Of a stretch of 64,000 nt of DNA, positions 21,369 through 64,000 are shown in pieces. Under the pieces are notes generated by a model. The model did no database searches and was not told where the DNA came from. It was given only the letters and a program-made list of their open reading frames with translations. The stretch is from Bdellovibrionota bacterium (lineage in GTDB: Bacteria; Bdellovibrionota; UBA1018; CAIPTA01; JAALKR01). Each line of letters begins with the position of its first letter. Positions within the stretch are counted from its first letter, which is position 1. The translations under genes were made by a program, and so were the position numbers. The stretch covers positions 416,001-480,000 of the forward strand of contig CBDBMJ010000003.1 in the NCBI GenBank assembly GCA_965207455.1, read 5' to 3'.

Positions 21369-21384
21369 AAAAGAATTATACAAG

Positions 21385-21439
21385 TGACTAGAAACTAGAC
21401 AAGAATTAAGTGTCCATGGCATTGACTAAAAAATAGACG
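21385..21439. promoter_or_regulatory. Two 17-bp candidate enhancer boxes: TGACTAGAAACTAGACA (21385-21401) and TGACTAAAAAATAGACG (21423-21439)
   Basis: Near-palindromic, repeated, 60-115 bp upstream of a sigma54 -24/-12 element. Confidence 0.5.
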
Positions 21440-47262: not shown

Positions 47263-48508
47263 TTTTTTATTATTCTTTAGCAATAATGCGCTCATCTTCC
47301 TTGCTTTGATCTTTCTCGTAAGCGCTGCCTTTTTTACTTCATCGGAGGTGGCTTTGATTAGCGCTAGTCGCAGTCGATTAAAAAAATTAAGAAAAGAGGG
47401 TAATGCTGGTGCCTCCATAGCGCTTATTTTGCTGGATAATGTGGAGTCCTTACTCATAACCACACAATTTGGCACGAATCTATCCATCGCGAGTGCCACC
47501 ACTGTGCTCACCCTTTATAGCATTATTCACATAGGTAGTTCTGGGGAATGGTATGTGGTGGCTATTATTACACCGTTCGTTCTACTATTCTGTGATAGCC
47601 TTCCCAAAATTCTTGCCCGTAGTTACCCTGAGGAAATTGGATTGCGATTCGCCTACCCGTTGTTTTTTATCCGTGGATTTCTTAAGCCCATAACCGGTGT
47701 GCTTTCCTTCTATACCAAAAGAATTTCCCGTCTCGCTGGAGGTCAAGAGGATAGCCTTACTCTTCGTAGAAAAACCCGGGAGCAACTTAACACTCTCCTA
47801 AGCGGAAGCGAAGGAGAGATGAAATTAACACAAAAAAGAATGGTTCGTAATATTTTGGAATTTTCTCAACAGTCGGTTCGGAATGCAATGCTTCCGCTGG
47901 TAAAGGTGGATGCTATTGAAAGTGAGGCTTCCATAAAAGAGGCCATCGAATTGTTTGAGAATTTGCGCCACTCTCGCATACCTATTTATAGTAATCGAAT
48001 AGATAATATTGTGGGAATTTTAAATTTTATGGATTTATTTAACCAATGCGACTTAGATGACAACGTTACAGATCATATGAGTAGCTGTATCTATGCTCCA
48101 GAACACCAGCGCTTGGAAGCACTGCTGATGAGCATGGAAGAAAAACAAGAATCCATGGCCATTGTGGTGGATGAATATGGAGGTGCTGTTGGTATTATTA
48201 CCAAAGAAGATGTGCTCGAAGAGGTTGTGGGCAATCTTTCCGATGAGTTTGATGAAAACACATTATTTTTCCATCAAATTTCAGAAAACACATTTCTAGT
48301 AAATGTAAATATTGAAATATCTAACTTCAATGAACGCATGGGTGATGAGATTCCCAAAGGCGATTATGAAACCTTATCCGGTTTTCTACTGCAACAGTTT
48401 AACTGCATCCCCAGCCTTGGTTCTGAACTCCACTATGGTAATTTAAAGTTTAAAGTGTACCGGGCCACCTCTAGGGCGGTACAATTTGTTATTGTTTCCA
48501 AGCGATAA
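47255..48508 (+). CDS. CNNM/DUF21-CBS-CorC protein
   Basis: SAAFFTSSEVAL, HSRIPIY, AIVVDEYGG..GIIT.EDVLEEVVG, YETLSGF CorC domain. Confidence 0.9.
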   Translation: MSSFLLFFSNNALIFLALIFLVSAAFFTSSEVALISASRSRLKKLRKEGNAGASIALILLDNVESLLITTQFGTNLSIASATTVLTLYSIIHIGSSGEWYVVAIITPFVLLFCDSLPKILARSYPEEIGLRFAYPLFFIRGFLKPITGVLSFYTKRISRLAGGQEDSLTLRRKTREQLNTLLSGSEGEMKLTQKRMVRNILEFSQQSVRNAMLPLVKVDAIESEASIKEAIELFENLRHSRIPIYSNRIDNIVGILNFMDLFNQCDLDDNVTDHMSSCIYAPEHQRLEALLMSMEEKQESMAIVVDEYGGAVGIITKEDVLEEVVGNLSDEFDENTLFFHQISENTFLVNVNIEISNFNERMGDEIPKGDYETLSGFLLQQFNCIPSLGSELHYGNLKFKVYRATSRAVQFVIVSKR

Positions 48509-48526
48509 GGCTCCTACAATAGCTTT

Positions 48527-48907
48527 ATGGCTAACCCATCGAATAGTGCGCTATTGGTTACCCGGAGTGCGTACTACCGAAAGCATTTAAAGAATCTCCT
48601 AGAGACATTAAAAATTCAGGTCTTAGCAGAAGCCATGGATGGTGCCCGCGCCTACCTATACTACCAATTCCATAAACCAGCCTTGGTGGTGATTGATGTT
48701 CTGCTGAAGGAAAAATCGGGGCTACTGCTAGCTAAGGCCATTATTGCTAAAAATGCTGAAGCCCGGATACTCCTAGTCTCTTCTCTGGATACAAGAAAAA
48801 TACGGGAGGAGGCGTTGTTTTCTGGTGCTAGCGACTTGCTCATCAAGCCCTTTTCTGATACAGAGTTTATGAGTAGTGTACAATACCTAATAGGGGATGG
48901 AAAATGA
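48527..48907 (+). CDS. Single-domain response regulator (atypical acidic pocket)
   Basis: EA.DG, P.LVVID, SG, VSS, GA...L.KPF; first DD pair replaced by TRS. Confidence 0.8.
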   Translation: MANPSNSALLVTRSAYYRKHLKNLLETLKIQVLAEAMDGARAYLYYQFHKPALVVIDVLLKEKSGLLLAKAIIAKNAEARILLVSSLDTRKIREEALFSGASDLLIKPFSDTEFMSSVQYLIGDGK

Positions 48908-49149
48908 TCGTAATACGTCTATTGAGATTGATTAAAACTATTTGTTTTGTTGCTATTGTAGCACTGGCCACGGTTTATATTAGTCGCCAGGAATGGCGAG
49001 GGAAAACTATTGGGGAGCACGTAGTGGAGCAGGTAGAGGACTCTCCACTGCAAGAGATCTATGAGAAGGTCCGCAAGGAACTTTCAGAGAAGTATATGAA
49101 AACCCGGGATCGGGTAAATAATTGGATAGCGGAATTCGGTAAATCCTAG
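48904..49149 (+). CDS. Small membrane protein
   Basis: ATGA overlap with upstream gene; single N-terminal TM. Confidence 0.6.
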   Translation: MIVIRLLRLIKTICFVAIVALATVYISRQEWRGKTIGEHVVEQVEDSPLQEIYEKVRKELSEKYMKTRDRVNNWIAEFGKS

Positions 49150-49158
49150 ATCTACCTA

Positions 49159-49389
49159 TTAATAGCCAGGCTTGCCAAGATTACCACTTCCTGCATTCTT
49201 CTTGATTGCTAGTAGAATTTTGCCAGCATCGCCTAGGTTACAAACCACACCACAGGTGCCACTCTGCTGGCAGGCCCTATTTACGGAACTCATGCTTTGC
49301 ATGCCCAAAGGGTCACTTGCAAATACATTTGCACTGGGAGCCAATATCGCTAATCCTATTGCTATTGCTATTAGACTTTGTTTCTTCAT
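49159..49389 (-). CDS. Small secreted Cys-containing protein (76 aa)
   Basis: AAGGAG RBS, signal peptide MKKQSLIAIAIGLAILAPSANVFA, C-x5-C-x3-C; own sigma54 promoter. Confidence 0.75.
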   Translation of the reverse strand: MKKQSLIAIAIGLAILAPSANVFASDPLGMQSMSSVNRACQQSGTCGVVCNLGDAGKILLAIKKNAGSGNLGKPGY

Positions 49390-49420
49390 GTCGTATTTCT
49401 CCTTTCTATATAATATCTAA

Positions 49421-49437
49421 TGCAAGTATCTTGCCAA
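49421..49437 (-). promoter_or_regulatory. sigma54 promoter of the 76-aa gene
   Basis: Minus strand TTGGCAA-GATAC-TTGCA. Confidence 0.7.
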
Positions 49438-49603
49438 CAGGGGGGAAATAAAGAATTTCCTTTTATTTCAACTACTTATGATGAATTTGAGCAGAATCTG
49501 CCCATGGCTGATGAGAGGTATTTTGTCTATTTTGTTTACAGGTGTAAAAAAAAGGGACTATTTGCCCCTTTTCGACGCTATTTTAGCAGAATGGCAAGCT
49601 CTA

Positions 49604-49825
49604 TTATTGGCCTGTCCCGCTCTCCTCTTGTTTTTTATTCATGATTTCTCGCATTTTCTTGTTAATGGTTTCCTGAGTACAGTGCGCAGCGTGGCTGCCC
49701 TCTTCGCAGCAAGCAGCAATTAACGCTTCCAGATCCAGTTGACCAATATCCTGCGCTGCTGCCACGTTCAGTGCAGATGGGGTAGCGGTAAACATAAGTA
49801 CAGAAACAATAAATATTTTTAACAT
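49604..49825 (-). CDS. Small secreted protein (73 aa), positional analogue of Bdellovibrio hit/Bd0108
   Basis: AGGAGG RBS, signal-like N-terminus, CCEEGSHAAHC; directly downstream of the RHS/YD gene. Confidence 0.7.
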   Translation of the reverse strand: MLKIFIVSVLMFTATPSALNVAAAQDIGQLDLEALIAACCEEGSHAAHCTQETINKKMREIMNKKQEESGTGQ

Positions 49826-49867
49826 AACTAAGAACCTCCTATTATAAACTCTAGCCCACTCATACTT

Positions 49868-51511
49868 CTATATCGGCTGGACACCTGCGGGCCTAATGAT
49901 TTCCAGCAAACCTTGAAACGTTCTCGTGATAGTGGATACAATTGCCCGCTTCCCTTGGGTGCTATTAGCGAGGGATCGTTTGGAACCACCACGAGCAACA
50001 GCCTTAGCAGAGTTCATCTTGCCTGCCTTATCATAGCCTATATCAATAGCGCCCACATTTTCTTGTTCTATCCTTGTAAGTCTAGAGGATTTTCTAAAAT
50101 AGTTGAATTTCACTTTCTGACCTTTCCCGTTCACAAAAGTAGCCAGTCGTCCTTGGCGGTCGTAGACAATCTTTATTTCTTTGCCGCCTGGTCCAGCAGC
50201 TTTTTTCAGGAGACCATTAAGAGCATACCCATAGGTATAGGTGGTTGTTCTTTTCTCCTTTTTATAAAATGTGGTAACTTTCGTGGGCTTTCCAGGAAAT
50301 TTCCTACTATATTGCCAAATAGTTTTCTTTTTAGGAGAGTCTTTCATTTTTAGGCTGCCACTGGGATAATACTCATATGTGGTTACGTCCTTACCGGAGA
50401 GGATTTTTAATGGCTGACTACAACAGCCATTGTATGTGGTTGTTGTCTTTTTTCCGTTAACAGTGCTGGAAAATTTTTTCTTATAAAGAGAGCCATCCTC
50501 TCTTTTCCCATACCAATACTCGTACTCTCTTTTTGTTACTTTTTTACCTGATGTTGTTGTGATTGAGGTTTTGAAGTGGGTATTTTTAGGGTTCGACCAA
50601 TACGTATATCTCTGAGCAAGATTTCCGACCTTCAATTCTTTCACCATGCCTCCCTTGCCTTTTTGAGAACTAGGAGACCAGTAGGTAATGGTTTCCTGCC
50701 TGCTGCTCGGATAGGTAATTTTTGTGAGATTATGAGCCGCATCGTACTCGTATTTGAAGGTATTCCCTATGGCATCTTTGGAGGTGATCAAATCTCCCTT
50801 TCCACACTTATGTTTAATACTGTATTTTTTACTGGGGCAGTATGTATAGCGTACTTCCTTTTTGTCGCTATTTCTTATGGCTTTGACTTTTCCATTGGGA
50901 CCAATGGTGAAGCTCAAGTACCCAGAGCGATTGCTTATTTTTTTCAAATTATTGTTGCTATATTTTATAGTGATAGTATCTTTAGTGGGTCTAACTTTTA
51001 CAATTTTTGTAACTCTATAGCCTGTTTTTTGACCCACAAACCGCTGTTTCGTAGGCAGGATTACTCGATGGGTGAAATAAATTTTTTCTCCATTTGCTAA
51101 AGTTCGTACAAAACCCTTGCCACCAGGAAGAACCTCAAGGTGTTGCTTTTTTCCTCTATTGGAGCTGGTGAGTTTCATTCCTGCCTTTAATTGTCTATTA
51201 GATGAACTGCTATTATGTTCAAATTTAGTTCTTGTGCCACCGCCACTCTCTATAACAGATACCGTGTTTTTATTGGAAACTAACAGGATGGATTCAAACT
51301 CCGTACCCCAGCCATAACCTAGCATGCCGTTGTATTCAGTTTGGCTATTATAGATACGTTTTATCTGTAAAAAATTTGCTCTTTCATTGGTGCTCTTTAT
51401 ATCCACAAAGCCCGTGAAATAATTTCCATTGGCACTGGCCACCAGTGCGTATGCCTTTGGCATAAACAAAAGACTAACAAGTAAAAAAGCAGATTGTATT
51501 GTTCGAGTCAT
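49868..51511 (-). CDS. Secreted RHS/YD-repeat protein (Bd0109-like), no toxin tip
   Basis: Signal peptide; NGN.F...D....L.I.R.YNS...G.LGYGW N-terminal RHS-type domain; YEYD..HNLTKITYP and YD.QGRL repeats; ends FQGLLEIIRPAGVQPI. Confidence 0.85.
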   Translation of the reverse strand: MTRTIQSAFLLVSLLFMPKAYALVASANGNYFTGFVDIKSTNERANFLQIKRIYNSQTEYNGMLGYGWGTEFESILLVSNKNTVSVIESGGGTRTKFEHNSSSSNRQLKAGMKLTSSNRGKKQHLEVLPGGKGFVRTLANGEKIYFTHRVILPTKQRFVGQKTGYRVTKIVKVRPTKDTITIKYSNNNLKKISNRSGYLSFTIGPNGKVKAIRNSDKKEVRYTYCPSKKYSIKHKCGKGDLITSKDAIGNTFKYEYDAAHNLTKITYPSSRQETITYWSPSSQKGKGGMVKELKVGNLAQRYTYWSNPKNTHFKTSITTTSGKKVTKREYEYWYGKREDGSLYKKKFSSTVNGKKTTTTYNGCCSQPLKILSGKDVTTYEYYPSGSLKMKDSPKKKTIWQYSRKFPGKPTKVTTFYKKEKRTTTYTYGYALNGLLKKAAGPGGKEIKIVYDRQGRLATFVNGKGQKVKFNYFRKSSRLTRIEQENVGAIDIGYDKAGKMNSAKAVARGGSKRSLANSTQGKRAIVSTITRTFQGLLEIIRPAGVQPI

Positions 51512-51565
51512 GATTTATTCGTCCCCCATATTTAATTTTATTCTAGTTCCTATCTTTTAGAAACC

Positions 51566-52441
51566 CTAAACTTTAATTTGAATCACTTTAATAATAACAA
51601 AACCACCCACAAACTGTAAGGTAAGGATTAGTCCTGTGAGGAGCCATCCTAGAGGAGTTGTGAATAGCGGAGTAATAAAGTTGGGATCACTTAAGTAGAA
51701 CATCACCCCTAGGCCAAAGGGCATACAGAAGACAATAACCCCCTGACTCACTCCCTGAGATACCATTGCGGAGATCTTCTGTTCCACCTTTATGCGCTCT
51801 CGAATGGTATATACAATTGTTTCAAATGTTTCGGCAAGATTTCCCCCCGTTTCTTTAAGAATAATTACTGAGGTTACAAACATGTTGACGTCCTCTGAGG
51901 GAATTCTCTTTGCTAGATTTTGAAAGGATTCTTCTACCGTCACCCCCAGTTGGTTCTGCTTAAGAATATAGTCGAATTCCTTCGACATAGGGTCGGGCAT
52001 TTCTTTTTTCACCATTCCAATAGCTTGTATAATAGATAGACCAGACTTCATGCCATTTGCCATTAAACTTAAGCCATCGATCATCTGTATGTTAAATTTC
52101 TGAATCCGTTGGTTCACGATGCGGTTCACTACCATCCTGGGCACAAACCACATAACTGCGAACACAAGAAAGCTAAAAATAATGGCAGGCCAGAGTTGGG
52201 GTAATATGAGAAGAAAGATGAGTAGGGCAGGAATACCAGGGGTTAGGATCAGAATGAGTAGAACGCGATTGGGAGAGACCTCTATGAACATTTTGGCCAT
52301 GGCATCCACAATATAATCCCGTGTACCAATGGATTGCCAACGAAGCCATTCTAAGAGTCGACCAATATTTTTCACAGAGACATAAAATATCATTAGGCCG
52401 ACTAATAAGGAAATTCCTAATGGACTAAAGTAATCGACCAC
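51566..52441 (-). CDS. tadB: Tad pilus inner-membrane platform protein (T2SSF domain)
   Basis: F..Q..D.L.LMANG.KSG.S, P.P...EF, ETGGNLAE, IRER, terminal TM pair. Confidence 0.88.
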   Translation of the reverse strand: MVDYFSPLGISLLVGLMIFYVSVKNIGRLLEWLRWQSIGTRDYIVDAMAKMFIEVSPNRVLLILILTPGIPALLIFLLILPQLWPAIIFSFLVFAVMWFVPRMVVNRIVNQRIQKFNIQMIDGLSLMANGMKSGLSIIQAIGMVKKEMPDPMSKEFDYILKQNQLGVTVEESFQNLAKRIPSEDVNMFVTSVIILKETGGNLAETFETIVYTIRERIKVEQKISAMVSQGVSQGVIVFCMPFGLGVMFYLSDPNFITPLFTTPLGWLLTGLILTLQFVGGFVIIKVIQIKV

Positions 52442-52444
52442 GGC

Positions 52445-54667
52445 TTAACTGACCTTCCTTGTTGGGAGGACAGGTTTTACGGTGGGTCGAGCGACCTTGC
52501 TTTGTATGAATAAGGATCGAGGTATTTTTATTCCTCGATTCTCCATGGTTTCCACAAATTTTGGTATAAAACCCGTGGGTAGAATCTCACCAATTACCTT
52601 TCGCCGTTTATCTAAACCGGACTGCTTAAACAAAAATATATCCTGCAAGCTTACTGTGTCTCCTTGCATCCCAACCACCTCTGTAATATGGGTGATCTTT
52701 CGAGAACCGTCCGAGAGTCGAGATTGCTGTACAATCAAGTTTACTGCGCTGGTGATTTGCTCGCGAATGGCTTTTACGGGAAGGTTCATACCCGCCATCA
52801 TCACCAGAGTTTCTAGACGGGAAATGGAGTCTCTTGGATTATTAGCGTGTACCGTAGTTAAACTCCCATCGTGTCCCGTGTTCATGGCTTGCAACATATC
52901 TAGAGCTTCCCCCGCTCTACACTCACCCACTATCACCCGGTCAGGTTTCATTCTTAGGGATTGTTTCACTAGATCTCGAATGGATACTTCTCCCTCCCCT
53001 TCAATGTTTTTTGGACGAGTCTCCAAGCGAACCACATGATCTTGGGCTAAGTCCAGCTCGGCTGCATCCTCACAGGTAATAATTCGCTCAGTACTAGGAA
53101 TAAAATTGGAAAGCACATTCAGGAGTGTGGTCTTACCAGAACCGGTGCCTCCAGACACAACCATGTTGAGCCTACCCTCCACACAAATACGGAGAAAATC
53201 GGCAATTTCTTGGGTCATGGAATTTTTATCCACCAGGTCTCTCCAGGTCATGCGCTCGTCGGGAAACTTACGAATAGTAACGGTGGGTCCCTTGATAGCC
53301 AAGGGAGGAATAATGGCATGGACCCGGGAACCATCGGCAAGACGAGCATCCACATAGGGAGATTTCTCGTCAATACGACGACCTAAAGGCATTACAATTC
53401 TTTCTATAATGTTGATGAGCTGCTGATCGCTAGAAAAGGTGGTGGGGGATAAGATATTTTTACCTGCTTGCTCAATATAAATTCTGTCTCTAGCAATTAC
53501 CATAATTTCTGATACGGTTGGATCGGCTAAAAGATCTTCCAAAGGCCCCAGCCCAAGAGCTTCATCTAAAATTTCTTTCACCAAAGATTGCATAGCATCC
53601 CGACCCTGACCTATGGAAGATAGATCTTCATTATTTAAAATAGATACAATCGAACTTTTACATTTATTTCTTAAAGCATCGTCGTGTATATTCGTTCCTT
53701 CTTTTTTTAAATCCACCTGCACTACTAATTCCTTATGCACACGAAGCTTAAGAGTGGAGCGAGCATCCGTGGGTTTACCAGCGCTACGCGCTTTACCGGC
53801 GCCCTCTTTTTGAGCCATGGGCCTCTTTATTGATGGCCGAGATACTTTTTTCACTGTGGAAAGTTTATACAGGAGTTTGGTTTGTTGTATCTTCCTTACC
53901 AACTCATGGTAAGCCCGAGTACTTGGAGATCGGAGCGCTGATAGAAGGAGGGGACTTCCGGCAGAGAGTGCTGCGGCATTAGATGCGGCATCCTCAGGTA
54001 TCATGGCGTACACCGGATGGCCGATATTTTTTTCTACTGTGGCAGCATTTACGGGTGCATTTGGTGTAAACCGGTTTAATATCACTTGGATCATCTCTTT
54101 GGGAAATAAATTATCAGCAATTCCTTTTATCAATCGACGGCTCTGATGAACTGCTAATAGTTCTGGAATGGTGACGAGAAAAATTCCTGTGGAGCATTCC
54201 ATGGCTTTTATGGTGTGGACGCTCATGCTGGCACCACAGTCCACAACTATTATGGGGTAGACCTGTGTGATAGATTTATAGAATTTTGCTAACGTATCTG
54301 CCTGTAGGGAATTTGATGCATCAGCATCCGTGGGAGCAGCAAGAAAATGCAGGCCACTGGGATGCTGGTTTACCAGTTTTACCATGGCACTCGTATCGTA
54401 ATTACCCACATGGTTGAGTGCTTCTTTCAAACCTTTGGGATTCTTCATGCCTAGAATGAGATTTTGGTCACCACAGGCCACTAAATCCTGATCCACTAAA
54501 AGTGTGCGCATTCCAAATTCTTTATGAAAACCTAAAGCAAGGTTAGCAGCGAAAACACTTTTGCCAACACCTCCCTTACCTCCAACAACAGATATTATAT
54601 AACCAGCCAATGTATATTTCCCTCCTTTTTTATCTATAGCGACGCTTGCTTCGCCTCTTACTGCCAA
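52445..54667 (-). CDS. tadA: Fusion of CpaE/TadZ (MinD-like) and CpaF/TadA assembly ATPase
   Basis: N-terminal GGKGGVGKS deviant Walker A; C-terminal GLGPLE.LL.D..V.EIMV, GGTGSGKTT, LRMKPDR.IVGECR..EA.DMLQAMNTGHDG. Confidence 0.92.
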   Translation of the reverse strand: MAVRGEASVAIDKKGGKYTLAGYIISVVGGKGGVGKSVFAANLALGFHKEFGMRTLLVDQDLVACGDQNLILGMKNPKGLKEALNHVGNYDTSAMVKLVNQHPSGLHFLAAPTDADASNSLQADTLAKFYKSITQVYPIIVVDCGASMSVHTIKAMECSTGIFLVTIPELLAVHQSRRLIKGIADNLFPKEMIQVILNRFTPNAPVNAATVEKNIGHPVYAMIPEDAASNAAALSAGSPLLLSALRSPSTRAYHELVRKIQQTKLLYKLSTVKKVSRPSIKRPMAQKEGAGKARSAGKPTDARSTLKLRVHKELVVQVDLKKEGTNIHDDALRNKCKSSIVSILNNEDLSSIGQGRDAMQSLVKEILDEALGLGPLEDLLADPTVSEIMVIARDRIYIEQAGKNILSPTTFSSDQQLINIIERIVMPLGRRIDEKSPYVDARLADGSRVHAIIPPLAIKGPTVTIRKFPDERMTWRDLVDKNSMTQEIADFLRICVEGRLNMVVSGGTGSGKTTLLNVLSNFIPSTERIITCEDAAELDLAQDHVVRLETRPKNIEGEGEVSIRDLVKQSLRMKPDRVIVGECRAGEALDMLQAMNTGHDGSLTTVHANNPRDSISRLETLVMMAGMNLPVKAIREQITSAVNLIVQQSRLSDGSRKITHITEVVGMQGDTVSLQDIFLFKQSGLDKRRKVIGEILPTGFIPKFVETMENRGIKIPRSLFIQSKVARPTVKPVLPTRKVS

Positions 54668-56195
54668 TAATTTTACGTTTAATATCTGCTGTACCCTTTG
54701 CTGCGTCCTGAATAATTTTGGGAGTAAGAAATACTAAAAATTGGGTTTTATTTGTTCGGAAAGCTCGAGATCGGAGAAGGGTAAGTATGGGATTTCCTCC
54801 ACCCCCGCTCCCACCCGGATCCTTATCCACATCAATAGCCATATTGTTGGAGATCAAGCCGCCTAGAACAGCGCTATCTCCCGATCGAATAAGAATGGAG
54901 TTTTTTAAGGAAGTTCTAGTAGTTCTAGGAGCGCCGGCACCACTTGCACCAGAAGGGGCGGAGAAATTAAATTCTGTATCTTTTAGTTCCAGCATATCTT
55001 TACCCTTTACTGTAGGTTTTAAACTAATGGAAAGACCAATATTGATAAGAGAGGTAATGGGAACTCCATCCTGCACTCCGGAAATATAAGGAACAGAATC
55101 CTGACGGTCTAAGGAGATCAAACTTCCCGATATACCGATTGCTACAGCAGAATGCAGTACTCTCGAATAACCTCCATTTTTCCCCGATTGCAATTTCGGG
55201 AAAAGATCTCTAATCGTGCCAGAAAAAGTGCCTCCTGAGGAAGCGCCAATCCCACCAGTTTCGGATTGACCAAAATTTAAACCTGCATCTGTGCTTAAAG
55301 TTGGGGCCCATTTAAAAAGAGCAGTCTTTGCATATTCTTTACCGATCTCCACAAAATGAAATGTAACACGAACCATTTTTGGTGCTGGCGGTGGAGGCCG
55401 TTGAGTTATGGTAATTAAATTTCGAATAGCTTGTTTTTTAACAGTCTGTAATATTCCATCCGCCACAGACTGAGAAGATATTATTTCTGGCACGTATGTT
55501 CTAGCAATATCTTCTGCCTTTGCTTTACTGATACCATTGCTCACAGTGCCCTCTAGAAAAAGTGTGTTGTTCGCTAGGCGAACTGTTATATTTACTCCCC
55601 AAGGATTTCGATTGATCTCGTCCTGTATTCGCCGTGCCGACTCCCGTTTAGATACTCTGCTAAGTCCGACTAAATTTAAAATGCCTCCCTTGGCACCACC
55701 GAAAGCATTGGCCACATTTATTATTCTATCCAAATCTTTTGGAACAATGAGATCTCCATCAATAATGATTTTTTCTCCCACACTGGTGATAGTAATGCCT
55801 TCCACGTTATCTAATAGCTGACGCATTTGTCGTACCCGTTCAGATAAATCTGTTGTGCGTACGTTGTAGTTTATAATTTTCGCTACATTGTTGTTCAAAT
55901 CTCGAATTAATATATTTGTGCTCCCCTTTTCTTGGGGAAATATATAAAGTTTTGTGGAGCCCGGAATTGGTTGCACCTTTAAAATCTTAGGATCTCCTAT
56001 ATCCACACCACCGGGTTGGAATGTTAGTTCTAAAATTTCCACAGTGCCGGCAATAATGTTTCGTTGCTCGGGTGCCTCTTTTTTCTTTTCACCCGTTAGC
56101 GAAGCTTTATTTTGAGAGTACACGGCAACAGGGATATACAATACTGTGAGACACAGTCCAATCACAAGATTCTGTTTTTTAAAAAAATAATTCAT
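54630..56195 (-). CDS. Tad secretin (RcpA/CpaC-like) with BON-like domains
   Basis: Pilus-formation N-domain (IGDP.I...G.T.I.I.D), I.G.....D...I, C-terminal SG.S.VLGGL...PIL..L.RS..F....T...VF.TP.I. Confidence 0.82.
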   Translation of the reverse strand: MNYFFKKQNLVIGLCLTVLYIPVAVYSQNKASLTGEKKKEAPEQRNIIAGTVEILELTFQPGGVDIGDPKILKVQPIPGSTKLYIFPQEKGSTNILIRDLNNNVAKIINYNVRTTDLSERVRQMRQLLDNVEGITITSVGEKIIIDGDLIVPKDLDRIINVANAFGGAKGGILNLVGLSRVSKRESARRIQDEINRNPWGVNITVRLANNTLFLEGTVSNGISKAKAEDIARTYVPEIISSQSVADGILQTVKKQAIRNLITITQRPPPPAPKMVRVTFHFVEIGKEYAKTALFKWAPTLSTDAGLNFGQSETGGIGASSGGTFSGTIRDLFPKLQSGKNGGYSRVLHSAVAIGISGSLISLDRQDSVPYISGVQDGVPITSLINIGLSISLKPTVKGKDMLELKDTEFNFSAPSGASGAGAPRTTRTSLKNSILIRSGDSAVLGGLISNNMAIDVDKDPGGSGGGGNPILTLLRSRAFRTNKTQFLVFLTPKIIQDAAKGTADIKRKIIGSKRRSKRRYR

Positions 56196-56267
56196 TCCTA
56201 GTATTTAGAGTAACAGAATCCAGAGATAAGCGGCAAGGAACGAAAGCTCAACAAACAATAATAGGGT

Positions 56268-57071
56268 TTATCTCCTGCCACCCCCGGAGGAAACGTTGCG
56301 TTTACTATTGGGTCCCAGCACATCGCTTACGGAAGTAGTTTTTACGATGTTCTCGCCATTATCATCGTTGTGGCGAAGTATAAGGTAAACTCCTCCTAGC
56401 TTACTTTCCGTGAGAACTAATTTTTGGGCATTTACGGGAGTAGCCTCTAATGTAACACTATTAAAGGTCGTGTATCGAGTAAGGTTTACTGTTTTGTTTT
56501 TTCTTGTATCACTGGAGGCTTGTTCTATAATACCCGGAACTGTGTTAGCAATTAATTTCCCTGTGGCCAAGACTAAAACATCTTGAAGTATGGTTTTCAC
56601 CTCGATGAAATCTATATTTCCTTTTCCATAATCAATGACTGCTAACACATCTACTCTATCTCCAGGCTTAATAAGACGTGAAACTCCACGAGAATCATTC
56701 ACTCGAACAGTGACGGCACGCTTGCCTAGACTTATTTGGCGAGATAATCCCGTACGAACACCTAAAAAAGTTACCTTTGTGCGTGTAATTTGCTCACCTT
56801 TAGATACGGGTGCGATGGCTAGACCACCCACAAAGTCTCCAATTCGTCCACTGGTACCGGGCTGTATGAATTTTTTGGGCATTGTTTGAACTGTAAGGTT
56901 CGTTTCGTCTAAAGGATCCAGCTCACCTATATTTTTTCCAGCCACAACAACCGTGGTTTCCTCTTTAAAATCTTTACGGTAGCTTTCTTCCGTGCTCGTA
57001 ACATAAGAATGCACCATCAGTACAGCCAAGAGGGCAATGACAAGAGAGATGGTAAAGGATCGATTATTCAT
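56268..57071 (-). CDS. cpaB: Flp pilus assembly protein CpaB/RcpC
   Basis: VVVA...I SAF domain; G.RAVT..V....GV..LI.PGDRVDV, LQDV.VLA.G, VTLE.TP..A.KL. Confidence 0.93.
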   Translation of the reverse strand: MNNRSFTISLVIALLAVLMVHSYVTSTEESYRKDFKEETTVVVAGKNIGELDPLDETNLTVQTMPKKFIQPGTSGRIGDFVGGLAIAPVSKGEQITRTKVTFLGVRTGLSRQISLGKRAVTVRVNDSRGVSRLIKPGDRVDVLAVIDYGKGNIDFIEVKTILQDVLVLATGKLIANTVPGIIEQASSDTRKNKTVNLTRYTTFNSVTLEATPVNAQKLVLTESKLGGVYLILRHNDDNGENIVKTTSVSDVLGPNSKRNVSSGGGRR

Positions 57072-57072
57072 T

Positions 57073-57579
57073 TTATTGCTCTACCCTTCCACAGTATGCG
57101 CCTAGAGTGTTACCAATCGAAGGTTTTCGGGATGTGCAAATACCAAGGGCAGTACGAATACGAATATGTTGTCGTTGAAAGTTAGATTCTGCTTCATATG
57201 GGTCATTTCTGGCGCCTGGAATATCTCTGGGTTCAACACCTGCACCAAGGCTCACTACGGGAGCAGGCTTAGTGGCACCTCCATCACCGTCATCATAATA
57301 ATCATCGCCCCCTCCTGCATTTGCAGAAACATACAAAAAAAAGGCAGACCGGCTAGATGGACTTTCTTCATATTCTTTCTTTCCAGGGCCGTCTCTATGA
57401 TTTAGCATTTTTAAAAATACATAGGCCCGTGTACTCTTCTGGCCTACAATCGAAGTATTGATTGCCATATTTACCTTAATCAAATGCCAGGTAAACAGCA
57501 TTACAAAAGGAAGCACTACGATAAATTCCATGAGCGCTTGCCCGGAGTGATTTTCGATTATTTTTCGTTTAGCAGCCAT
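57073..57579 (-). CDS. TadE-like pseudopilin
   Basis: SGQALMEF plus hydrophobic helix. Confidence 0.8.
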   Translation of the reverse strand: MAAKRKIIENHSGQALMEFIVVLPFVMLFTWHLIKVNMAINTSIVGQKSTRAYVFLKMLNHRDGPGKKEYEESPSSRSAFFLYVSANAGGGDDYYDDGDGGATKPAPVVSLGAGVEPRDIPGARNDPYEAESNFQRQHIRIRTALGICTSRKPSIGNTLGAYCGRVEQ

Positions 57580-58252
57580 TATCAAACAAGAACTCCTTTC
57601 TTTCTACTCCTTGTCTCCATCCACCCACACCATACGTATCGTACAATTTTTTTAAAAACTTACGACATTCTTTCATAGTTTTCTCACGGCCAAGGAAAGC
57701 GTCGCTGGCGAGAGCGATTTTACCGTCCCAAGGTAAGGAGGTCTGCTCCCCCCTTGGCCCTATCGTAATAGATTTACCCTCCCCCGCTGTCAGGAAGCGA
57801 GCAAACGGCAATAGGAAGAGGCGAAATTCAAAGTTATACTGTACGCCCTCTGCCCAAGCAAAAATACGGGTGGTGCGTCTTTTGTCCTTTGTGTAGGGAT
57901 GAATTCCGATAAAAGCCCCCGGTATGGGTTCATCCCCTTCAGCGATATCTCTTTTGTCATCATCTCTGGGAGAAACAACGGGCGCCAATAGATCCTTTAT
58001 TCCATCGGGCCTTTTTATTAAAGCACGCAGGGTTTCTACAGCATGTTCTCTTTGCTCACTTTGCTCTTCCGTTGCGGAAAGGTAAGCTCTTGCAGCCATA
58101 TAGGTGCTGTAATGAACATAGTGACCCCATGCAAGTCCCCAAGCCAGCTGTATAAAAACAAAGAGCAGAGTTAAAATAACCATTATAACGAGCATAAACT
58201 CTATTAGGGTTTGCCCCTGCTCCCAATTATTTTTTTTTTGCTGTCCTATCAT
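57569..58252 (-). CDS. TadE-like pseudopilin
   Basis: QGQTLIEF plus TM, Y.TY.AAR motif; start set at MIGQQ. Confidence 0.82.
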   Translation of the reverse strand: MIGQQKKNNWEQGQTLIEFMLVIMVILTLLFVFIQLAWGLAWGHYVHYSTYMAARAYLSATEEQSEQREHAVETLRALIKRPDGIKDLLAPVVSPRDDDKRDIAEGDEPIPGAFIGIHPYTKDKRRTTRIFAWAEGVQYNFEFRLFLLPFARFLTAGEGKSITIGPRGEQTSLPWDGKIALASDAFLGREKTMKECRKFLKKLYDTYGVGGWRQGVERKEFLFDNGC

Positions 58253-58260
58253 CTTATTTT

Positions 58261-58545
58261 TTACTTGTCCGAAGGTTTGTATAGATGGAAATTTCTGGAG
58301 TCGGCAGTTCCCGTTGTTTGCAATATATTCTTTCTGGGTCCACCTAGATCCACTTCGTCCCAACCCAAAGCATCCCTGTGCCCATATTTATAATTAAATT
58401 TTAAATAATATACCGCTGGGCTCGTTAGTTCATTAAAGAAGTATTCCCGATCCCGAAACAATTGGAAAAGAGCAAGAATAGCTATAACAATTACCCCAGA
58501 AACTAATATGTACTCGACTATGGTTTGTCCAGACTCACCCTTCAT
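58261..58545 (-). CDS. Minor Flp-type pilin
   Basis: ESGQTIVEYIL plus hydrophobic helix. Confidence 0.8.
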   Translation of the reverse strand: MKGESGQTIVEYILVSGVIVIAILALFQLFRDREYFFNELTSPAVYYLKFNYKYGHRDALGWDEVDLGGPRKNILQTTGTADSRNFHLYKPSDK

Positions 58546-59067
58546 TTAAAACAAGCCTCCATTCTGGTCCAACCAAATTATGGCGACAGTAGCAAGGGTA
58601 ATGGAAACACCAAAACTAAACTTATGATTCTTATTCACATCCAGTGTTGCGGGAGGAAAACCATGCACAATTTTTGATAGAACAAAGTGGAAGCTACTTC
58701 GCATAAGAGGCAGGAGCCTCCCTGAAAAAAGAGTAATGAAAAATGCATAAACTCCCCCGATAGCAATGGATGCTAGAGCTACTTGGAGTGTAAAAGCAAC
58801 GCCTCCCCAGGCACCAATGCTCATGAGAAGCTTCACATCTCCTGCTCCCATAATATTTAAAATATATAGAGGCAAGAATAAAGAAAGGCCCAACAATAAA
58901 CCTAAAAAAGAGTGCCCCAAGCCATCCCAACCTTGCCACCAAAAATGGAAGCCTAGAGCAAGCAGCATTGTTGGAAAGGTCCACCAGTTGGGGATTTTTT
59001 TTGTAAAAAGATCGTAGACGCCCCCTAGGAGAGCTACCCCAAAAATGATTGTGCTTAGTTGTTCCAA
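58546..59067 (-). CDS. cpaA: A24 prepilin peptidase (CpaA/TadV)
   Basis: YDL...KIPN, MGAGDVKL...G, F...I. Confidence 0.9.
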   Translation of the reverse strand: MEQLSTIIFGVALLGGVYDLFTKKIPNWWTFPTMLLALGFHFWWQGWDGLGHSFLGLLLGLSLFLPLYILNIMGAGDVKLLMSIGAWGGVAFTLQVALASIAIGGVYAFFITLFSGRLLPLMRSSFHFVLSKIVHGFPPATLDVNKNHKFSFGVSITLATVAIIWLDQNGGLF

Positions 59068-59315
59068 TTTCCCCCTGCTCCTGCGTATGGATCTTTTGAT
59101 TGAGTTCCCTGGCCAGCAGAGCCGGTGCCGCTTTTCAAATTTTGTTCTAAATGAGTTCCTAAACGAAGCATTGTTTTATTAATTATGCCGCTAAAACCAA
59201 TGTCTTCATTAAAAAATAATGTGGTGGTGAAACCAAGGAGTAGGAAAAGCAGGAGTAAATACTCTATAAGGGCTTGCCCTGAGTTCTTCTTTTTCTGTTT
59301 TCCTGCTTCTTCCAT
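59055..59315 (-). CDS. Minor Flp-type pilin
   Basis: SGQALIEYLLL plus hydrophobic helix; GGAGG RBS. Confidence 0.8.
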   Translation of the reverse strand: MEEAGKQKKKNSGQALIEYLLLLFLLLGFTTTLFFNEDIGFSGIINKTMLRLGTHLEQNLKSGTGSAGQGTQSKDPYAGAGGNWNN

Positions 59316-59366
59316 GATGCAGCCTCCATGTTTCTTTCCTAGAGTGGAATAGGTTTTGTGTTTTTG

Positions 59367-59546
59367 CTATTCAGCAAAAACATCGTCTCTTCTCTCATTT
59401 AATCCTTCAAATAGCTTTTCCATAAAGGTTTTAAGCTTATTTTTAAATTGCATAATGAGAGTTACCACCACGGCTAGTATAAGGATATACTCGGTGGTCG
59501 TTTGCCCCGATTCCTCAAAGATAAACTTTCTTATTCTCAAACCCAT
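59367..59546 (-). CDS. flp: Flp major pilin, 59 aa, missing from the ORF track: MGLRIRKFIFEESGQTTTEYILILAVVVTLIMQFKNKLKTFMEKLFEGLNERRDDVFAE
   Basis: Translated by hand; canonical Flp motif EESG|QTTTEY plus hydrophobic run; first gene of the tad cluster. Confidence 0.9.
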   Translation of the reverse strand: MGLRIRKFIFEESGQTTTEYILILAVVVTLIMQFKNKLKTFMEKLFEGLNERRDDVFAE

Positions 59547-59582
59547 TGATATAGCCTATAACTTTTTCCTCTTCTCCCTACC

Positions 59583-59609
59583 TTTTCGGCATATACGGAA
59601 AAAGCTTGA
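59583..59609 (-). promoter_or_regulatory. sigma28/FliA-type promoter upstream of flp
   Basis: Minus strand TCAA-N15-GCCGAAAA (consensus TAAA-N15-GCCGATAA). Confidence 0.6.
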
Positions 59610-59794
59610 GAAGAATTTCTCTCCCTCTTATTATTTTAACAGAAAACAGCGTTTCGCGTCAACCGCAGATCGAGTAAAAAATCAAATAAATTCAATTGTT
59701 TACAAGTTTTCTTCTCAGCCATGCTAAATCTCCCGAAATAACAAAAAAACCCTTTTTCGTGGCTAATTCCTACCTGCTTTCCTGTGCCCCCCCC

Positions 59795-61774
59795 CTAGTT
59801 CTCCTCCTTTGGAAAAGCCTCATACTTGGTGAGCTTATTCCTGCAGCGGCGTTTATAGTTGTCTCCCTCTGGTGCCACCTTTAAGCATAATTCAAATTTC
59901 TGGCGTGCCTCATCCAGAGAACTAATACTCTCTGCTAGCACAGCTTGTGCATAGATCTGCTTTGCCCTAAGGTGGAGGGCCGATCGTATAGAGCCCAAGC
60001 CGCTTAAAGCACGTTGATTGCTGGACTCCAGTTTAAGCACTTTCCGGTACAGTTCACCACTTTTTACCATGCTCTCAGATCTAACTTTTAGTTTATCCGC
60101 TTCCTCCAATAGGGGATTTATCAAGGCATCGAGCTTGTCTCTAGCTTCTTTCTTTTTCTCCGTCACACGCTCCATATATCGATTTTCCGAGTATTGGAAT
60201 CTGGATAATGTGTTTGCAAAAGCCATGGCTTTAATAAATTCTTCTTTTTGAACAAGCTCTTCTAATACCTTGAATTCGCCTTCCGCTTCTTCCTCCAGTT
60301 TCTTTCTCTGTATCTCTAAAATTTTTGCTTTCCGTTCTTCCAATATCTTTTCTTGTATTTTTTCCTGCCACACTTGGACGGTTTGATTGTTAGGGTCTTT
60401 TACAAAGACTGCTTCTATACCTCTTTCCAATTCTGATCGAAGACTGGGGTCTTTCAAGGCTCTTTGAAATAATTTCTCCAATTTTTTCACCGTTTTTTCC
60501 ACTTCTTTTTGAATCCTAATTTTAATTCTCTCTCTTCGACGCTGGTCTAATTCTTCCTCTCGTCGCTCAATTCCAAGTCTGGCCTCCTCCTGATAAATTC
60601 TAGCGTCTTTAAAGGTGCTAATCAGGCGAAAAATCTTAGATAAATTATCCTGCATTTTTTCATAATTACTTTTTTCACGCGCTAAGATAATTCTCTTATA
60701 GGCATTGAGTACTATTTTTTTATTTTCTTTGTTAAGCGTTTCGTATGTTCGAATAATTTTCCCTGATTTATCTTTGTATACTTTCACTGTCTTTTTTTGT
60801 TTCTCGTTTACCTCCTCATCATTATTGAATAGAAAGATACTCAATAAAGCGGCAATAAAAATAATTAGCAAGCGTTTATTTTTAGGAAGTCCCTTGAACT
60901 GTTGCCAACGTCTTTTTAAAAGGCTTTTCTCTTGTATTCCTGCCGGGAGATTTCCTTCTTGGCTTACACCGGGAACAACTGGTCTATCCCAAGCTTGAAG
61001 GTCGCCCCTTTGTTGTGAAATCAATTCGGAAGGAGATTGAGGTCTCGAAACAGCAGCTTCTTCTGGAACAGGTGAAAACCCGCCTTCTTTTTCAAAAAAT
61101 TCCTTGCTTTCTCCTGTGAATTCTATTTTTATATCTCCAACTTGAATAATGTCTCCAGTTACAAGCTCTTTTTTTGTTATAGGATTATCATTCACAAATG
61201 TTTTATTAGCACTGTCCAAGTCTTTTATATAGAAATGGATTCCTTCACGCCAAACCTCAAAATGTTTGCGAGATGCTTTTTTCTCATTGATGATGATGTT
61301 GCATGTGCTGGCTCGCCCAATTAAGATTTTCTCCTCATTTACTTCGTATCTTTCCCTATTGGCAACGCCTGCCTCGAAACGCAAGCATCCCACAATAGGA
61401 ACGGCCATGACTTTTGTTTCTGAGTCTTCTTCATTAGACTCAGATTCGGCGGGAGATTCTGGAGAATCTTCCATGTTCTTTTCGTCGATAATATTTATCC
61501 GTAAAGAATAGGCACCAACAACGATTTCTTCTCCTCCATGCAATATGGCGTTTTCCACTTCAGTGCCATTTACAGCAAGGGAACCCGAGGTGCTCTCCTT
61601 TTCTATTTTCCATCCTTCTTCCAATAATCGCAGGGTGGCATGGAGGCGGCTGATAGATACATCGGGTAGACGAATAATGCAACCAGGAGCACGTCCTATA
61701 CTGATCTCTCTAGCTCCTTCTTCTTCTATCTCAGAGACTTGAGCGCCATCCATGAATATGGATATGGTAAGCAT
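59795..61774 (-). CDS. Double-FHA, single-TM protein with periplasmic coiled-coil/TPR-like region
   Basis: IGRA..C.I.L....ISR.HA and IGRA..C.I......SRKH...DL.S.N.T.VN FHA motifs; TM LLIIFIAALLSIFLF. Confidence 0.85.
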   Translation of the reverse strand: MLTISIFMDGAQVSEIEEEGAREISIGRAPGCIIRLPDVSISRLHATLRLLEEGWKIEKESTSGSLAVNGTEVENAILHGGEEIVVGAYSLRINIIDEKNMEDSPESPAESESNEEDSETKVMAVPIVGCLRFEAGVANRERYEVNEEKILIGRASTCNIIINEKKASRKHFEVWREGIHFYIKDLDSANKTFVNDNPITKKELVTGDIIQVGDIKIEFTGESKEFFEKEGGFSPVPEEAAVSRPQSPSELISQQRGDLQAWDRPVVPGVSQEGNLPAGIQEKSLLKRRWQQFKGLPKNKRLLIIFIAALLSIFLFNNDEEVNEKQKKTVKVYKDKSGKIIRTYETLNKENKKIVLNAYKRIILAREKSNYEKMQDNLSKIFRLISTFKDARIYQEEARLGIERREEELDQRRRERIKIRIQKEVEKTVKKLEKLFQRALKDPSLRSELERGIEAVFVKDPNNQTVQVWQEKIQEKILEERKAKILEIQRKKLEEEAEGEFKVLEELVQKEEFIKAMAFANTLSRFQYSENRYMERVTEKKKEARDKLDALINPLLEEADKLKVRSESMVKSGELYRKVLKLESSNQRALSGLGSIRSALHLRAKQIYAQAVLAESISSLDEARQKFELCLKVAPEGDNYKRRCRNKLTKYEAFPKEEN

Positions 61775-61775
61775 C

Positions 61776-62759
61776 CTATGGGCTCTCCTGATTTTCTTGT
61801 TTGTCTATTATTCTTAATGCTTCCTTTGAATCTATGTATAGTTTATTCTCAGGATCTTTTTTTAATAAACCCATCACACGCATGTAATGCATCTTTGCTT
61901 CATTGGTGCGCAAAGAGCGTCGCGCCCGGATCGCAGCTTGATAGGAGATTTCTATTTCTTTCTCTAAACGAACGTTGGCTAAGGAAAGGTAGGTTTGGGC
62001 TATTCTATGATTTTGATCTATGGTAACTGCTGTTTTGAAAGCAGAAATAGCGCGACGGAAGTTCCTGTTCTCTAGCTCTCTCCTGCCTTGACGATAAAAT
62101 TTTTCAGCTGATTTATATGTGGGGCTGTTCGTATCCGAAACACCGAGAACATCTTTTATGGCCTCCAGCCCTTCTTGCTTAGAAATTTTCTTTTTTGGTT
62201 TCTCCTCATCCACAAAGCTTACTTTTCCTCTCTCTCGCAATGTTAATATCTTTTCTCCAGAAGAAAAAGCAATAACAAGGAGAATGATTACGCCCAAGAA
62301 AACAACATTTTTCTTTTTCTTTAGTTCTTTTTCTTCCGTCTCTTCTGCTCTCGTGGAGGAAGAGACCTTGGATGGAGAAACAATGCCAGCCACCTGAGAT
62401 TGACTGCCGGGAGCAATAACTTCCATGGTAGTCCCTCCTATGGTCATAATATCTCCTGGTTCGAGTTTAGCAGATTCCACCAATCTTTGATTTACCGAGA
62501 GGCCATTAATGCTATCCATATCTTTTGCGATATATGTGTTTTCCGCCCAAGATAGTTCCACGTGTTGTCGTGATATTTGAGTATCAATTAAAATGATGGA
62601 GCAAGAATCATCTCGACCAATTAGGATATTATCGCTTAATAGACAAAATCCCTCACCAAGATTCTCCCCTTGCACAATCTTTAAGCGCAGGCGCTCTCCA
62701 AATTGAAATCTGCTGGGCATTTTTCCTTTGAAGTGCAATATGGAAGGACTACGAGCCAT
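61776..62759 (-). CDS. FHA-TM-TPR protein
   Basis: IGRD..C.I.L.D..ISRQH...D..S.NG..VN; TM; Y.QG.REL...NF.RA...F..A...D..H..A TPR-like; start uncertain (62720-62789). Confidence 0.85.
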   Translation of the reverse strand: MARSPSILHFKGKMPSRFQFGERLRLKIVQGENLGEGFCLLSDNILIGRDDSCSIILIDTQISRQHVELSWAENTYIAKDMDSINGLSVNQRLVESAKLEPGDIMTIGGTTMEVIAPGSQSQVAGIVSPSKVSSSTRAEETEEKELKKKKNVVFLGVIILLVIAFSSGEKILTLRERGKVSFVDEEKPKKKISKQEGLEAIKDVLGVSDTNSPTYKSAEKFYRQGRRELENRNFRRAISAFKTAVTIDQNHRIAQTYLSLANVRLEKEIEISYQAAIRARRSLRTNEAKMHYMRVMGLLKKDPENKLYIDSKEALRIIDKQENQESP

Positions 62760-64000
62760 ACTCGCCTTCTCCACCAGCCGGGTTAGCAATAAACAAGTAA
62801 GCTTCTATTTTTTCTGGAAGAGAATGAATGGCTAAACATTGTACTCGATGCAGTCCAGAACCAAATTCATAATCCTCCTGAACGTCATCCATACTGCCAG
62901 CGGCACCTTTTTCCATCATATCCACAAATAGAGACATAAGCGCATCATCGCTGATTAAATTTTGAACCGGCAGGGGATTATCTGGATCCCCATGAATGCC
63001 AGAAATATCTTCAAAACTATGACTGACAGCAATTACCTCAGAATTGGAATTTAGTAAAAGCATAGATTGCAGAGAATTGGTAACTAAAAATTGCAAGGGA
63101 GCCATAAAACTCTCCACAATTTGCTGTTCATTATCCGTTGTTGCAACTTCTTCTGGAGAATCTTGGGGGCGCAGATCGGGGATACGGCTAAGAACGCCAT
63201 TGATAGACTCAATTAAACTATCCAGTACTTCAAATTTATACCGTCTGGGAACGACGGCTTCGTTGCCTTTAAGAACCTCATCAATATCGTCACCTAGCCT
63301 GCCGATCATGTTGGTGGTAAGCATACTCATGATATAAATAAAAACCACACCCAGAAGAAGTGAGATCATAAAAGTCTCTAGATAGATGACGCTGATAGTA
63401 CCAACATCTAGAGCGATTCTATTCAGTGAAAAATCCAAAACAGCTAATGCTTTGGGCACATTTATATCTCGCTTGAGAGAACGCACCATTATAGGCACGG
63501 TAACAAGAACCCTTTCTCCATCTTCCGAACGAACCCTATTAAGACTCCAATACTTCTGGTCTCCTGTTTTCATACGCTTTAACATTTTCACCACAAATGC
63601 TTGGGTTACTTCTTCATTTAATTTAAGGGCAGGAGCTTGGATTCGTCCATTAAGATCCGTGATGAAAGCATCCCTTACGGCACGGTCTTTATAGGCAAAA
63701 TCCACGTCTAAACGTTCTCGTTTTCCTTTCGCAATATGTATTTGATTACTCTCGGCCATTTGTCGAGCTATGTAAAATGCTCGTCTCTCCGCTTCGCGAG
63801 TTACGGATTCTTTAGCTGATTCTAGAAGAGGGTAAACGGACATTCCCAAGTGCAGGATAGTGTAGGTAAGAAATAAGCCAGAAAAAATAAAAACCCAGGT
63901 ATGGCGACTATGGAGATCGTAGAAAACAGGCAGCACCAATTCATTGAAACGATAAAATAATTTTTTTACAAAACTCTTTTCTGTCTGGGATTTTAGTACA
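62749..64000 (-). CDS. Two-TM membrane protein with periplasmic and PAS-like domains; N-terminus lies beyond window end
   Basis: Frame stays open from 63939 to 63999 (VLKSQTEKSFVKKLFYRFNEL...); two TM segments; overlaps the downstream FHA gene. Confidence 0.75.
   Translation of the reverse strand, partial: VLKSQTEKSFVKKLFYRFNELVLPVFYDLHSRHTWVFIFSGLFLTYTILHLGMSVYPLLESAKESVTREAERRAFYIARQMAESNQIHIAKGKRERLDVDFAYKDRAVRDAFITDLNGRIQAPALKLNEEVTQAFVVKMLKRMKTGDQKYWSLNRVRSEDGERVLVTVPIMVRSLKRDINVPKALAVLDFSLNRIALDVGTISVIYLETFMISLLLGVVFIYIMSMLTTNMIGRLGDDIDEVLKGNEAVVPRRYKFEVLDSLIESINGVLSRIPDLRPQDSPEEVATTDNEQQIVESFMAPLQFLVTNSLQSMLLLNSNSEVIAVSHSFEDISGIHGDPDNPLPVQNLISDDALMSLFVDMMEKGAAGSMDDVQEDYEFGSGLHRVQCLAIHSLPEKIEAYLFIANPAGGEGEYGS

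Follow-up and report, generated by a model that had tools for sequence, protein, structure and literature searches.

A one-piece Tad pilus, FHA and RHS locus in a Bdellovibrionota genome: a putative predation pilus orthologous to two Bdellovibrio bacteriovorus operons

Introduction

What would an uncultured member of the Bdellovibrionota do with Tad pilus genes, FHA proteins and an RHS gene gathered in a single run? The run lies at the end of a 64,000-nucleotide (nt) stretch of its DNA, hereafter the window (assembly GCA_965207455.1, contig CBDBMJ010000003.1, positions 416,001 to 480,000), where all open reading frames (ORFs) between 49159 and 64000 are on the minus strand. The original prediction saw here a divergent homologue of the tad/hit predation locus of Bdellovibrio bacteriovorus, with an FHA module joined to the pilus and RHS genes, and likened it to the Kil killing system of Myxococcus xanthus. 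In reports on B. bacteriovorus, core tad genes are described as essential, CRISPR interference blocks invasion and TadZA binds RomR (bioRxiv 10.64898/2026.07.08.737194), and bd0470 and bd0474 mutants fail to kill prey (PMC6561027). We consider it likely that the run encodes a polar Tad (type IVc) pilus with which the host attacks prey, orthologous to the machine of B. bacteriovorus but with the two operons united; we infer the role in predation from orthology. The system is real and largely known, in a different, probably older, arrangement. Coordinates refer to the window unless prefixed; G000 is the host genome, L001 the stretch continuing past the window end, other L and G numbers are loci and genomes, and f numbers are families.

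Orthology and gene order

As judged from sequence, the run corresponds by orthology to a pair of B. bacteriovorus operons, bd0470-0474 and the tad/hit locus, set one after the other. The counterpart of the former consists of tadC, a DUF192 gene and three FHA membrane proteins; that of the latter extends from flp to tadZA and on through tadB, a Bd0109-type RHS gene and small secreted proteins. Our references were two loci of one genome, L119 for tad/hit and L146 for tadC-FHA. After its RHS gene, L119 encodes a 101-amino-acid (aa) protein that begins as the published bd0108 primer specifies and contains Cys56 and Cys59, all features published for Bd0108. L146 carries tadC, DUF192, three FHA proteins and a 228-aa protein, and the two sizes checked, 387 and 228 aa, agree with those published for Bd0473 (386) and Bd0475 (228).

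The best matches of the reference genes in the host genome fall in the locus for TadZA (48% identity), TadB (43%), DUF192 (38%), TadC (37%), RcpC (36%), RcpA (31%), RHS (27%) and the three FHA proteins (21-22%), as well as for Flp and one TadE. For RHS the match with the tad-linked gene of the reference is reciprocal (27%, E 6e-53), as predicted for an orthologue of Bd0109, and the reverse search recovers the tad-linked gene in five of five genomes. The large Tad proteins are likewise the best matches of the corresponding reference genes, and none of the outcomes that the original prediction had named as speaking against it came about. TadZA was matched at E<=1e-170 in 133 of the phylum's 141 genomes, and RHS stands directly after tadB in 49 of 57 loci. 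The predicted placement of the host agrees with its closest titled RHS relatives, which are Bdellovibrionota assemblies. An RHS-alignment scan of species genomes confirmed 436 relatives, and the 79 loci kept are titled Bdellovibrionota (73), Pseudomonadota (4) and Myxococcota (1), with one lacking a phylum. In a tree of RcpC, RcpA, TadZA and TadB (63 rows), the host's class is sister to a family that includes Bacteriovorax- and Halobacteriovorax-titled loci.

The ORF list, Pfam matches and spacing bear out the predicted run, which begins beyond the window. The tadC gene (296 aa, L001:2762-3652, equal to G000:C3:480762-481652), guessed to lie past 64000, is there; it is T2SSF by Pfam and the best match of the L146 tadC (E 1e-65). 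Beside it is the DUF192 gene (119 aa, L001:2378-2737, by Pfam), which we count as part of the system, and then a 539-aa protein in the Bd0472 position (62749-64000, starting at L001:2368). This had been described as a transmembrane/PAS protein, which is right as far as it goes; its N-terminal FHA domain lies just outside the window, and the whole reads FHA, transmembrane segment, periplasmic sensor-like domain, transmembrane segment, helical linker, PAS. There follow a 337-aa protein in the Bd0473 position (61776-62789; FHA, transmembrane segment and, weakly, TPR by Pfam), with a weak reference match (E 8e-5), and the 659-aa Bd0474 orthologue (59795-61774; two FHA domains, transmembrane segment and helical/TPR region), identified by Pfam and as best match of the reference.

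After a 248-nt gap comes the pilus cluster: the major pilin Flp1 (59 aa, 59367-59546; Flp1_like E 1e-10, 55% identical to the L119 Flp), a pilin-like protein (86 aa, 59055-59315), the prepilin peptidase TadV/CpaA (173 aa, 58546-59067; Peptidase_A24 E 2e-15, both Asp motifs kept) and a second pilin-like protein (94 aa, 58261-58545), both pilin-like proteins having a prepilin motif and a transmembrane segment. A TadE-like minor pilin follows (57569-58363; ORF of 264 aa, its true start probably later), with a TadE match slightly below the Pfam cut-off (E 2e-4) and a best match to the L119 gene in the same position, and then a TadE/F-like minor pilin (170 aa, 57073-57585) with a prepilin motif and a conserved position. 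The prepilin motif G-Q-x-x-x-E-Y/F occurs in five genes of the run. Next are RcpC/CpaB (267 aa, 56268-57071; RcpC and SAF), the secretin RcpA/CpaC (521 aa, 54630-56195; pil_N, BON and secretin), the TadZ-TadA (CpaE-CpaF) fusion ATPase (740 aa, 52445-54667; MinD/ParA and T2SSE) and TadB (291 aa, 51566-52441; T2SSF), all named from Pfam and, for RcpC, RcpA and TadB, also as best matches of the reference. The RHS gene and genes for 73- and 76-aa proteins complete the order. Intergenic spacing runs from -103 to +72 nt, except for about 248 nt ahead of flp and 214 nt ahead of the 76-aa gene. In run X1, a single contig spans 48500-64000 without differences; since X1 is possibly the source sample, this is a check on assembly only.

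The RHS protein and its small neighbors

The Bd0109-type RHS/YD protein (547 aa, 49868-51511) has a signal peptide, DUF6531 and RHS_repeat matches, and a conserved C-terminal helix that its model places beside a YD beta-sheet. A helical segment of 58-94 aa is found in 49 of 53 RHS orthologues. In the host only 15 aa of it are left, so that an insert of about 50 aa is missing, and three f13 proteins retain 7-9 aa. Alternatively, the pilus might export the RHS protein as the carrier of a polymorphic toxin, the small genes providing immunity or cargo, in what would be a Kil-like killing device. It does resemble part of the Rhs cages of type VI secretion systems (T6SS) in a fold search (TM-score up to 0.39), and the small genes vary strongly between genomes. 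However, 547 aa amounts to about half a cage, the cleavage motif (PxxxxDPxG) occurs in none of the 53 orthologues, the C-terminus is conserved rather than variable, and the small proteins have signal-peptide-like N-termini. Published work also treats Bd0108-Bd0109 as a regulatory pair (PMC4267844). We therefore regard this reading as very improbable; by its sequence features the RHS protein is not a toxin carrier or toxin cage.

The 73-aa protein (49604-49825), 42 nt after RHS, and the 76-aa protein (49159-49389) are of secreted type, with three cysteines each. Short proteins, one to three in number, follow RHS in most of the loci listed and carry signal-like N-termini and cysteines; such arrays were noted already in PMC10469934. 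By sequence and placement, the two are positional, not sequence, equivalents of Bd0108 and its neighbor (bd0103-type), and neither has sequence similarity to Bd0108. The two small secreted reference proteins have no positional partner as best match in the host genome. The 73-aa protein aligns at 30% with the gene in the same place of G001, a genome of the same family. B. marinus likewise is reported to have no Bd0108 homologue (PMC4267844), so that the CXXC homologue appears to define the genus rather than the system. A Bd0108-like match at C1:224310 (E 1e-4) was rejected as chance, since it is antisense within a cell-wall (mur) gene cluster. A complex prediction for RHS (24-547) with the 73-aa protein (25-73) scored 0.28 against a mark of 0.32, with controls not folded.

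The FHA module and the PP2C-like gene

Among aligned orthologues of the 539-aa protein, FHA is present in 42 of 42 and PAS in 15 of 42. Its model has a pLDDT of 88, and the top fold match is WalK over 427 columns, with a TM-score of only 0.21. All four FHA domains of the locus keep the G-R and S-x-x-H residues, a motif with a known role in this domain. Elsewhere in the host are, labeled by inspection, an FHA-GGDEF protein and an FHA-transmembrane protein resembling a gliding-motor component (G000:C1:1137383-1138354 and C1:1680818-1682794).

The gap before flp is occupied, in the majority of joined loci, by a gene encoding about 240 aa. Pfam PP2C_2 matches four of five such proteins; the L146 protein has no match, and its 10-member family aligns to the other PP2C-like proteins (HHalign probability 99). 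In a rough column count, none of 31 PP2C-like members has all five metal-binding Asp positions, and ten members of the f17/f20/f22/f24/f25 group keep none. Given this link and the loss of these residues, Bd0475 is probably a degenerate PP2C, a pseudophosphatase. It is called hypothetical in PMC12034629, whose main text does not contain the word "phosphatase".

In three of three f18 genomes, a RomR-like gene directly follows the tadC-FHA-PP2C module (L150:1433-2755, L151:1435-2583, L152:8350-9576). Pfam gives a receiver domain only, and we presume RomR from the architecture; the position fits the reported TadZA-RomR link. In L165 (G001:C34), where the tadC-FHA-PP2C module is detached, a TadA paralogue comes next after it.

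Predicted promoters

Promoters were scanned with consensus sequences against mononucleotide shuffles, the host locus being counted in. A predicted sigma-28 (FliA)-like promoter lies ahead of flp (59583-59609, minus strand); such sites precede flp in 15 of 50 loci including the host, vs 4.2% of shuffles. A sigma-54-like -24/-12 site is predicted ahead of the 76-aa gene (49421-49436, minus strand), and sites with at most one mismatch occur within 1 kb after RHS in 30 of 48 loci including the host, vs 2.9% of shuffles; where loci were inspected, the site lies ahead of a small gene. A sigma-70 scan gave 31 sites vs 29.3 expected by chance. FliA control of the flp1 promoter has been demonstrated (PMC5430801).

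Distribution and history of the joined form

We took 60 tadZA loci, namely 20 relatives and 40 more chosen from the 133 TadZA-matched genomes for long contigs and family spread. The host's class contributes 25, three of which stop before the point of interest. Among the remaining 22, one (in G001) is split and 21 are joined; 19 of these reach tadC, and in two the contig runs out within the FHA genes. Outside the class, f12 (two loci) and f16 (one) are joined directly. Among 25 further genomes searched for tadC, 21 are split (f13, f14, f15, f17, f18, f20, f22-f25), three (f19 twice, f21) have tadC about 15-16 kb from tadZA plus inserts, and one is unclear. The joined form is hence found in four families besides the host's class, and the lineages with cultured predators are split. 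The predicted joining of FHA module and pilus/RHS genes stands, as the rule in the host's class and not a rarity. Weak FHA-profile matches upstream in L119 and L120 were rejected as the module, the real one being hundreds of kb away in both genomes. In f19 (L124, L125, L139, L141), inserts of 1.3-4.7 kb lie among the pilin genes.

TadV is encoded at 34 of 55 loci; it has already been published that Bacteriovorax-like genomes have this gene and that Bdellovibrio lacks it (PMC5430801). A recent preprint calls the separate tadC and missing TadV unusual B. bacteriovorus traits and, in its accessible text, leaves the nearby FHA genes unexplained (bioRxiv 10.64898/2026.07.08.737194). Since the joined form exists and TadV is in most loci, these appear to be strain traits; the joined loci suggest a derived state for both and make the FHA proteins likely members of the pilus system.

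Which form came first? In a 30-row TadZA+TadB tree, an unrooted gene tree, three split clades come between the joined lineages, and placing the 14 split rows (G001 left out) in one clade is rejected (p-AU 0.004). The joined form in the host's class might be a secondary re-fusion of operons already split, which would concern history only: unweighted parsimony needs three changes (one split, one re-fusion, plus G001), one fewer than with four separate splits. Against re-fusion, the host's class, f12 and f16 share one junction and one order (2xFHA, optional PP2C, flp), and the split lineages carry different genes after the FHA module. An internal promoter at the junction would make splitting cheap, and G001 is also split; with the split lineages not forming one clade, either history must invoke several events. 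Because of the shared junction in distant joined lineages, the different neighbors after the module in split ones, the promoter and the rejected single origin, we judge the joined form probably ancestral and re-fusion somewhat unlikely. The literature searched gave no description of the one-piece form; that search left most subscription papers and supplements outside its scope, and such synteny may appear in Seef 2021 Supplementary file 2 or in figures of the 2026 preprint.

The host genome and predation partners

The host genome is 2.38 Mb in three contigs and 94.7% complete. It encodes FliA, RpoN, five flagellin-family matches, a type IVa pilin, a RomR-like gene (C1:1396526) and, after recR, an MglA-like gene found with the Arf family profile (C3:200354); MglA regexes found nothing in the genome, and the Roc family was unusable as a probe, its positive control having failed. 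There are two Ser/Thr-kinase matches, one of them full, and one canonical PP2C.

Several observations weigh against a predation pilus. A single S13 D,D-peptidase is present vs three ORFs in G119, so that prey-rounding enzymes look absent. The Bd0475-like gene is missing at the locus, where a gap of about 249 nt holds no remnant, and the one PP2C elsewhere is canonical; the genome (94.7% complete) thus appears to have lost the PP2C-like gene of the module. Three small pilin-like reference genes have no positional partner as best match in the host genome, the 73-aa protein lacks CXXC, the Bd0108-like reference gives no match at the locus, and a search with the 73-aa protein among 1.84 billion representatives finds only itself. 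Finally, f19 has the Tad core, with RHS not found after tadB in four of its loci.

As a rival reading, the host might be a member of the phylum that has a small genome, does not prey and uses the same machine to attach to surfaces or to a eukaryote. The genome size, the single peptidase and the loss of both the PP2C-like gene and the RHS insert are compatible with this, as is the adhesive use of Tad pili in other bacteria (PMC12428579). On the other side, the host has the full orthologue set of predation-needed genes together with RomR, MglA, FliA and flagellins, and genomes of 2-3 Mb are common across the phylum. A closed f17 genome likewise has one S13 peptidase and 22 of 61 class genomes have none; S13 counts do not separate lifestyles. 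We thus consider adhesion unlikely and continue to favor a predation pilus.

Other pilus genes lie outside the locus. A second secretin and a TadA paralogue, directly followed by a Ser/Thr-kinase-like gene and with a T2SSF-like gene near (G000:C1:1529317-1536085), resemble the B. bacteriovorus rcpA2-tadA2 module. Two lone Flp-like pilin genes (G000:C1:693112-693339 and C1:1182703-1182960) recall those reported for other predators of the phylum, and two near-identical PilD-like prepilin peptidase ORFs stand 4 kb apart behind the type IVa pilin operon (G000:C1:1819360-1824436).

Facing the locus end from the plus strand (46258-49149) are a pair of CNNM/CBS genes, a gene for a receiver-domain protein and one for an 81-aa protein; among the Bdellovibrionota loci examined, many have the receiver gene after the small genes. 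Further off, an 1100-aa subtilase lies beside a 1072-aa protein without a Pfam match (29921-36442, minus), and an L,D-transpeptidase with an NTF2-like domain (16132-17070, minus) and an N-acetylmuramoyl amidase (20253-21422, minus) may act on the host's own wall or on that of prey. Past the window, at L001:5607-14000 and further (about 483400-494300 of G000:C3), there is a tandem duplication, by expansion or assembly artifact, of a unit some 4.7 kb long, at 99.7% identity. The unit encodes two proteins that Pfam does not match: one of secreted type (627/651 aa), in which a Cys-rich repeat of about 24 aa recurs many times, and one of 477 aa. Rfam at gathering scores gave no matches within the window.

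Discussion

By analogy with B. bacteriovorus, which needs its polar Tad pilus to stay attached to prey and to invade, a FliA promoter would drive flp to RHS in the swimming phase, and TadV would mature the pilins. TadZA, acting on TadB/TadC, would extend and retract the pilus through RcpC and the secretin, its TadZ half tying the machine to the RomR-marked pole, and the pilus would hold prey long enough for attack. More speculatively, the three FHA membrane proteins at the TadC platform may pass contact signals by phospho-threonine binding, and the periplasmic RHS and 73-aa proteins may tune pilus extrusion, as Bd0109 does with Bd0108.

A broader reading, which we offer tentatively at a little below even chances, is that the one-piece run represents the ancestral predation-pilus operon of the Bdellovibrionota. 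TadC, DUF192, the three FHA proteins and the PP2C pseudophosphatase (Bd0475) would be built-in subunits of the pilus base, forming a contact sensor read through phospho-threonine, with a receptor built like a sensor kinase without the kinase (FHA-transmembrane-sensor-transmembrane-PAS). The split, TadV-less form of B. bacteriovorus would then be derived, and the host would have a trimmed version that dispenses with both the pseudophosphatase and the helical arm of RHS. What is new is the arrangement; the machine is known. Beyond the derived traits and FHA membership, the joined loci give Bd0475 a probable fold and suggest that a sigma-54 promoter serves the second small gene, and all three points are testable in B. 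bacteriovorus now.

Among known systems, the closest is that of B. bacteriovorus HD100 (bd0108-bd0119; bd0470-bd0475), which shares the genes and order within each operon, the TadZA fusion, RHS after tadB, small secreted genes after RHS, a FliA-like promoter before flp, and RomR and MglA in the genome. Here, in contrast, the operons are joined, TadV is encoded in the locus, there is neither a Bd0475-like gene nor a Bd0108 sequence homologue, and RHS has no helical insert. The Halobacteriovorax/Bacteriovorax tad loci are reported to include TadV (PMC5430801) and small RHS neighbors without Bd0108 homology (PMC4267844); unlike here, their tadC-FHA module is elsewhere, followed by a PP2C-like and a RomR-like gene. 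A canonical adhesion Tad locus has separate tadZ and tadA and adjacent tadB-tadC, whereas here TadZA is fused and tadC lies about 12 kb from tadB. The YD-repeat beta-sheet fold is common to RHS, T6SS Rhs cages and teneurin YD shells, but the protein here has half the length, a signal peptide, no cleavage motif and no toxin tail. The Kil system of M. xanthus is also a Tad-derived machine with associated FHA proteins, and Seef 2021 grouped the Bdellovibrionales system with it. The predicted likeness was not borne out in the Kil features that could be tested: KilF is an FHA-ATPase, whereas the ATPase here is TadZ-TadA with a MinD/ParA-like N-terminus, and KilC is short and without N0, whereas the secretin here is 521 aa with pil_N and BON.

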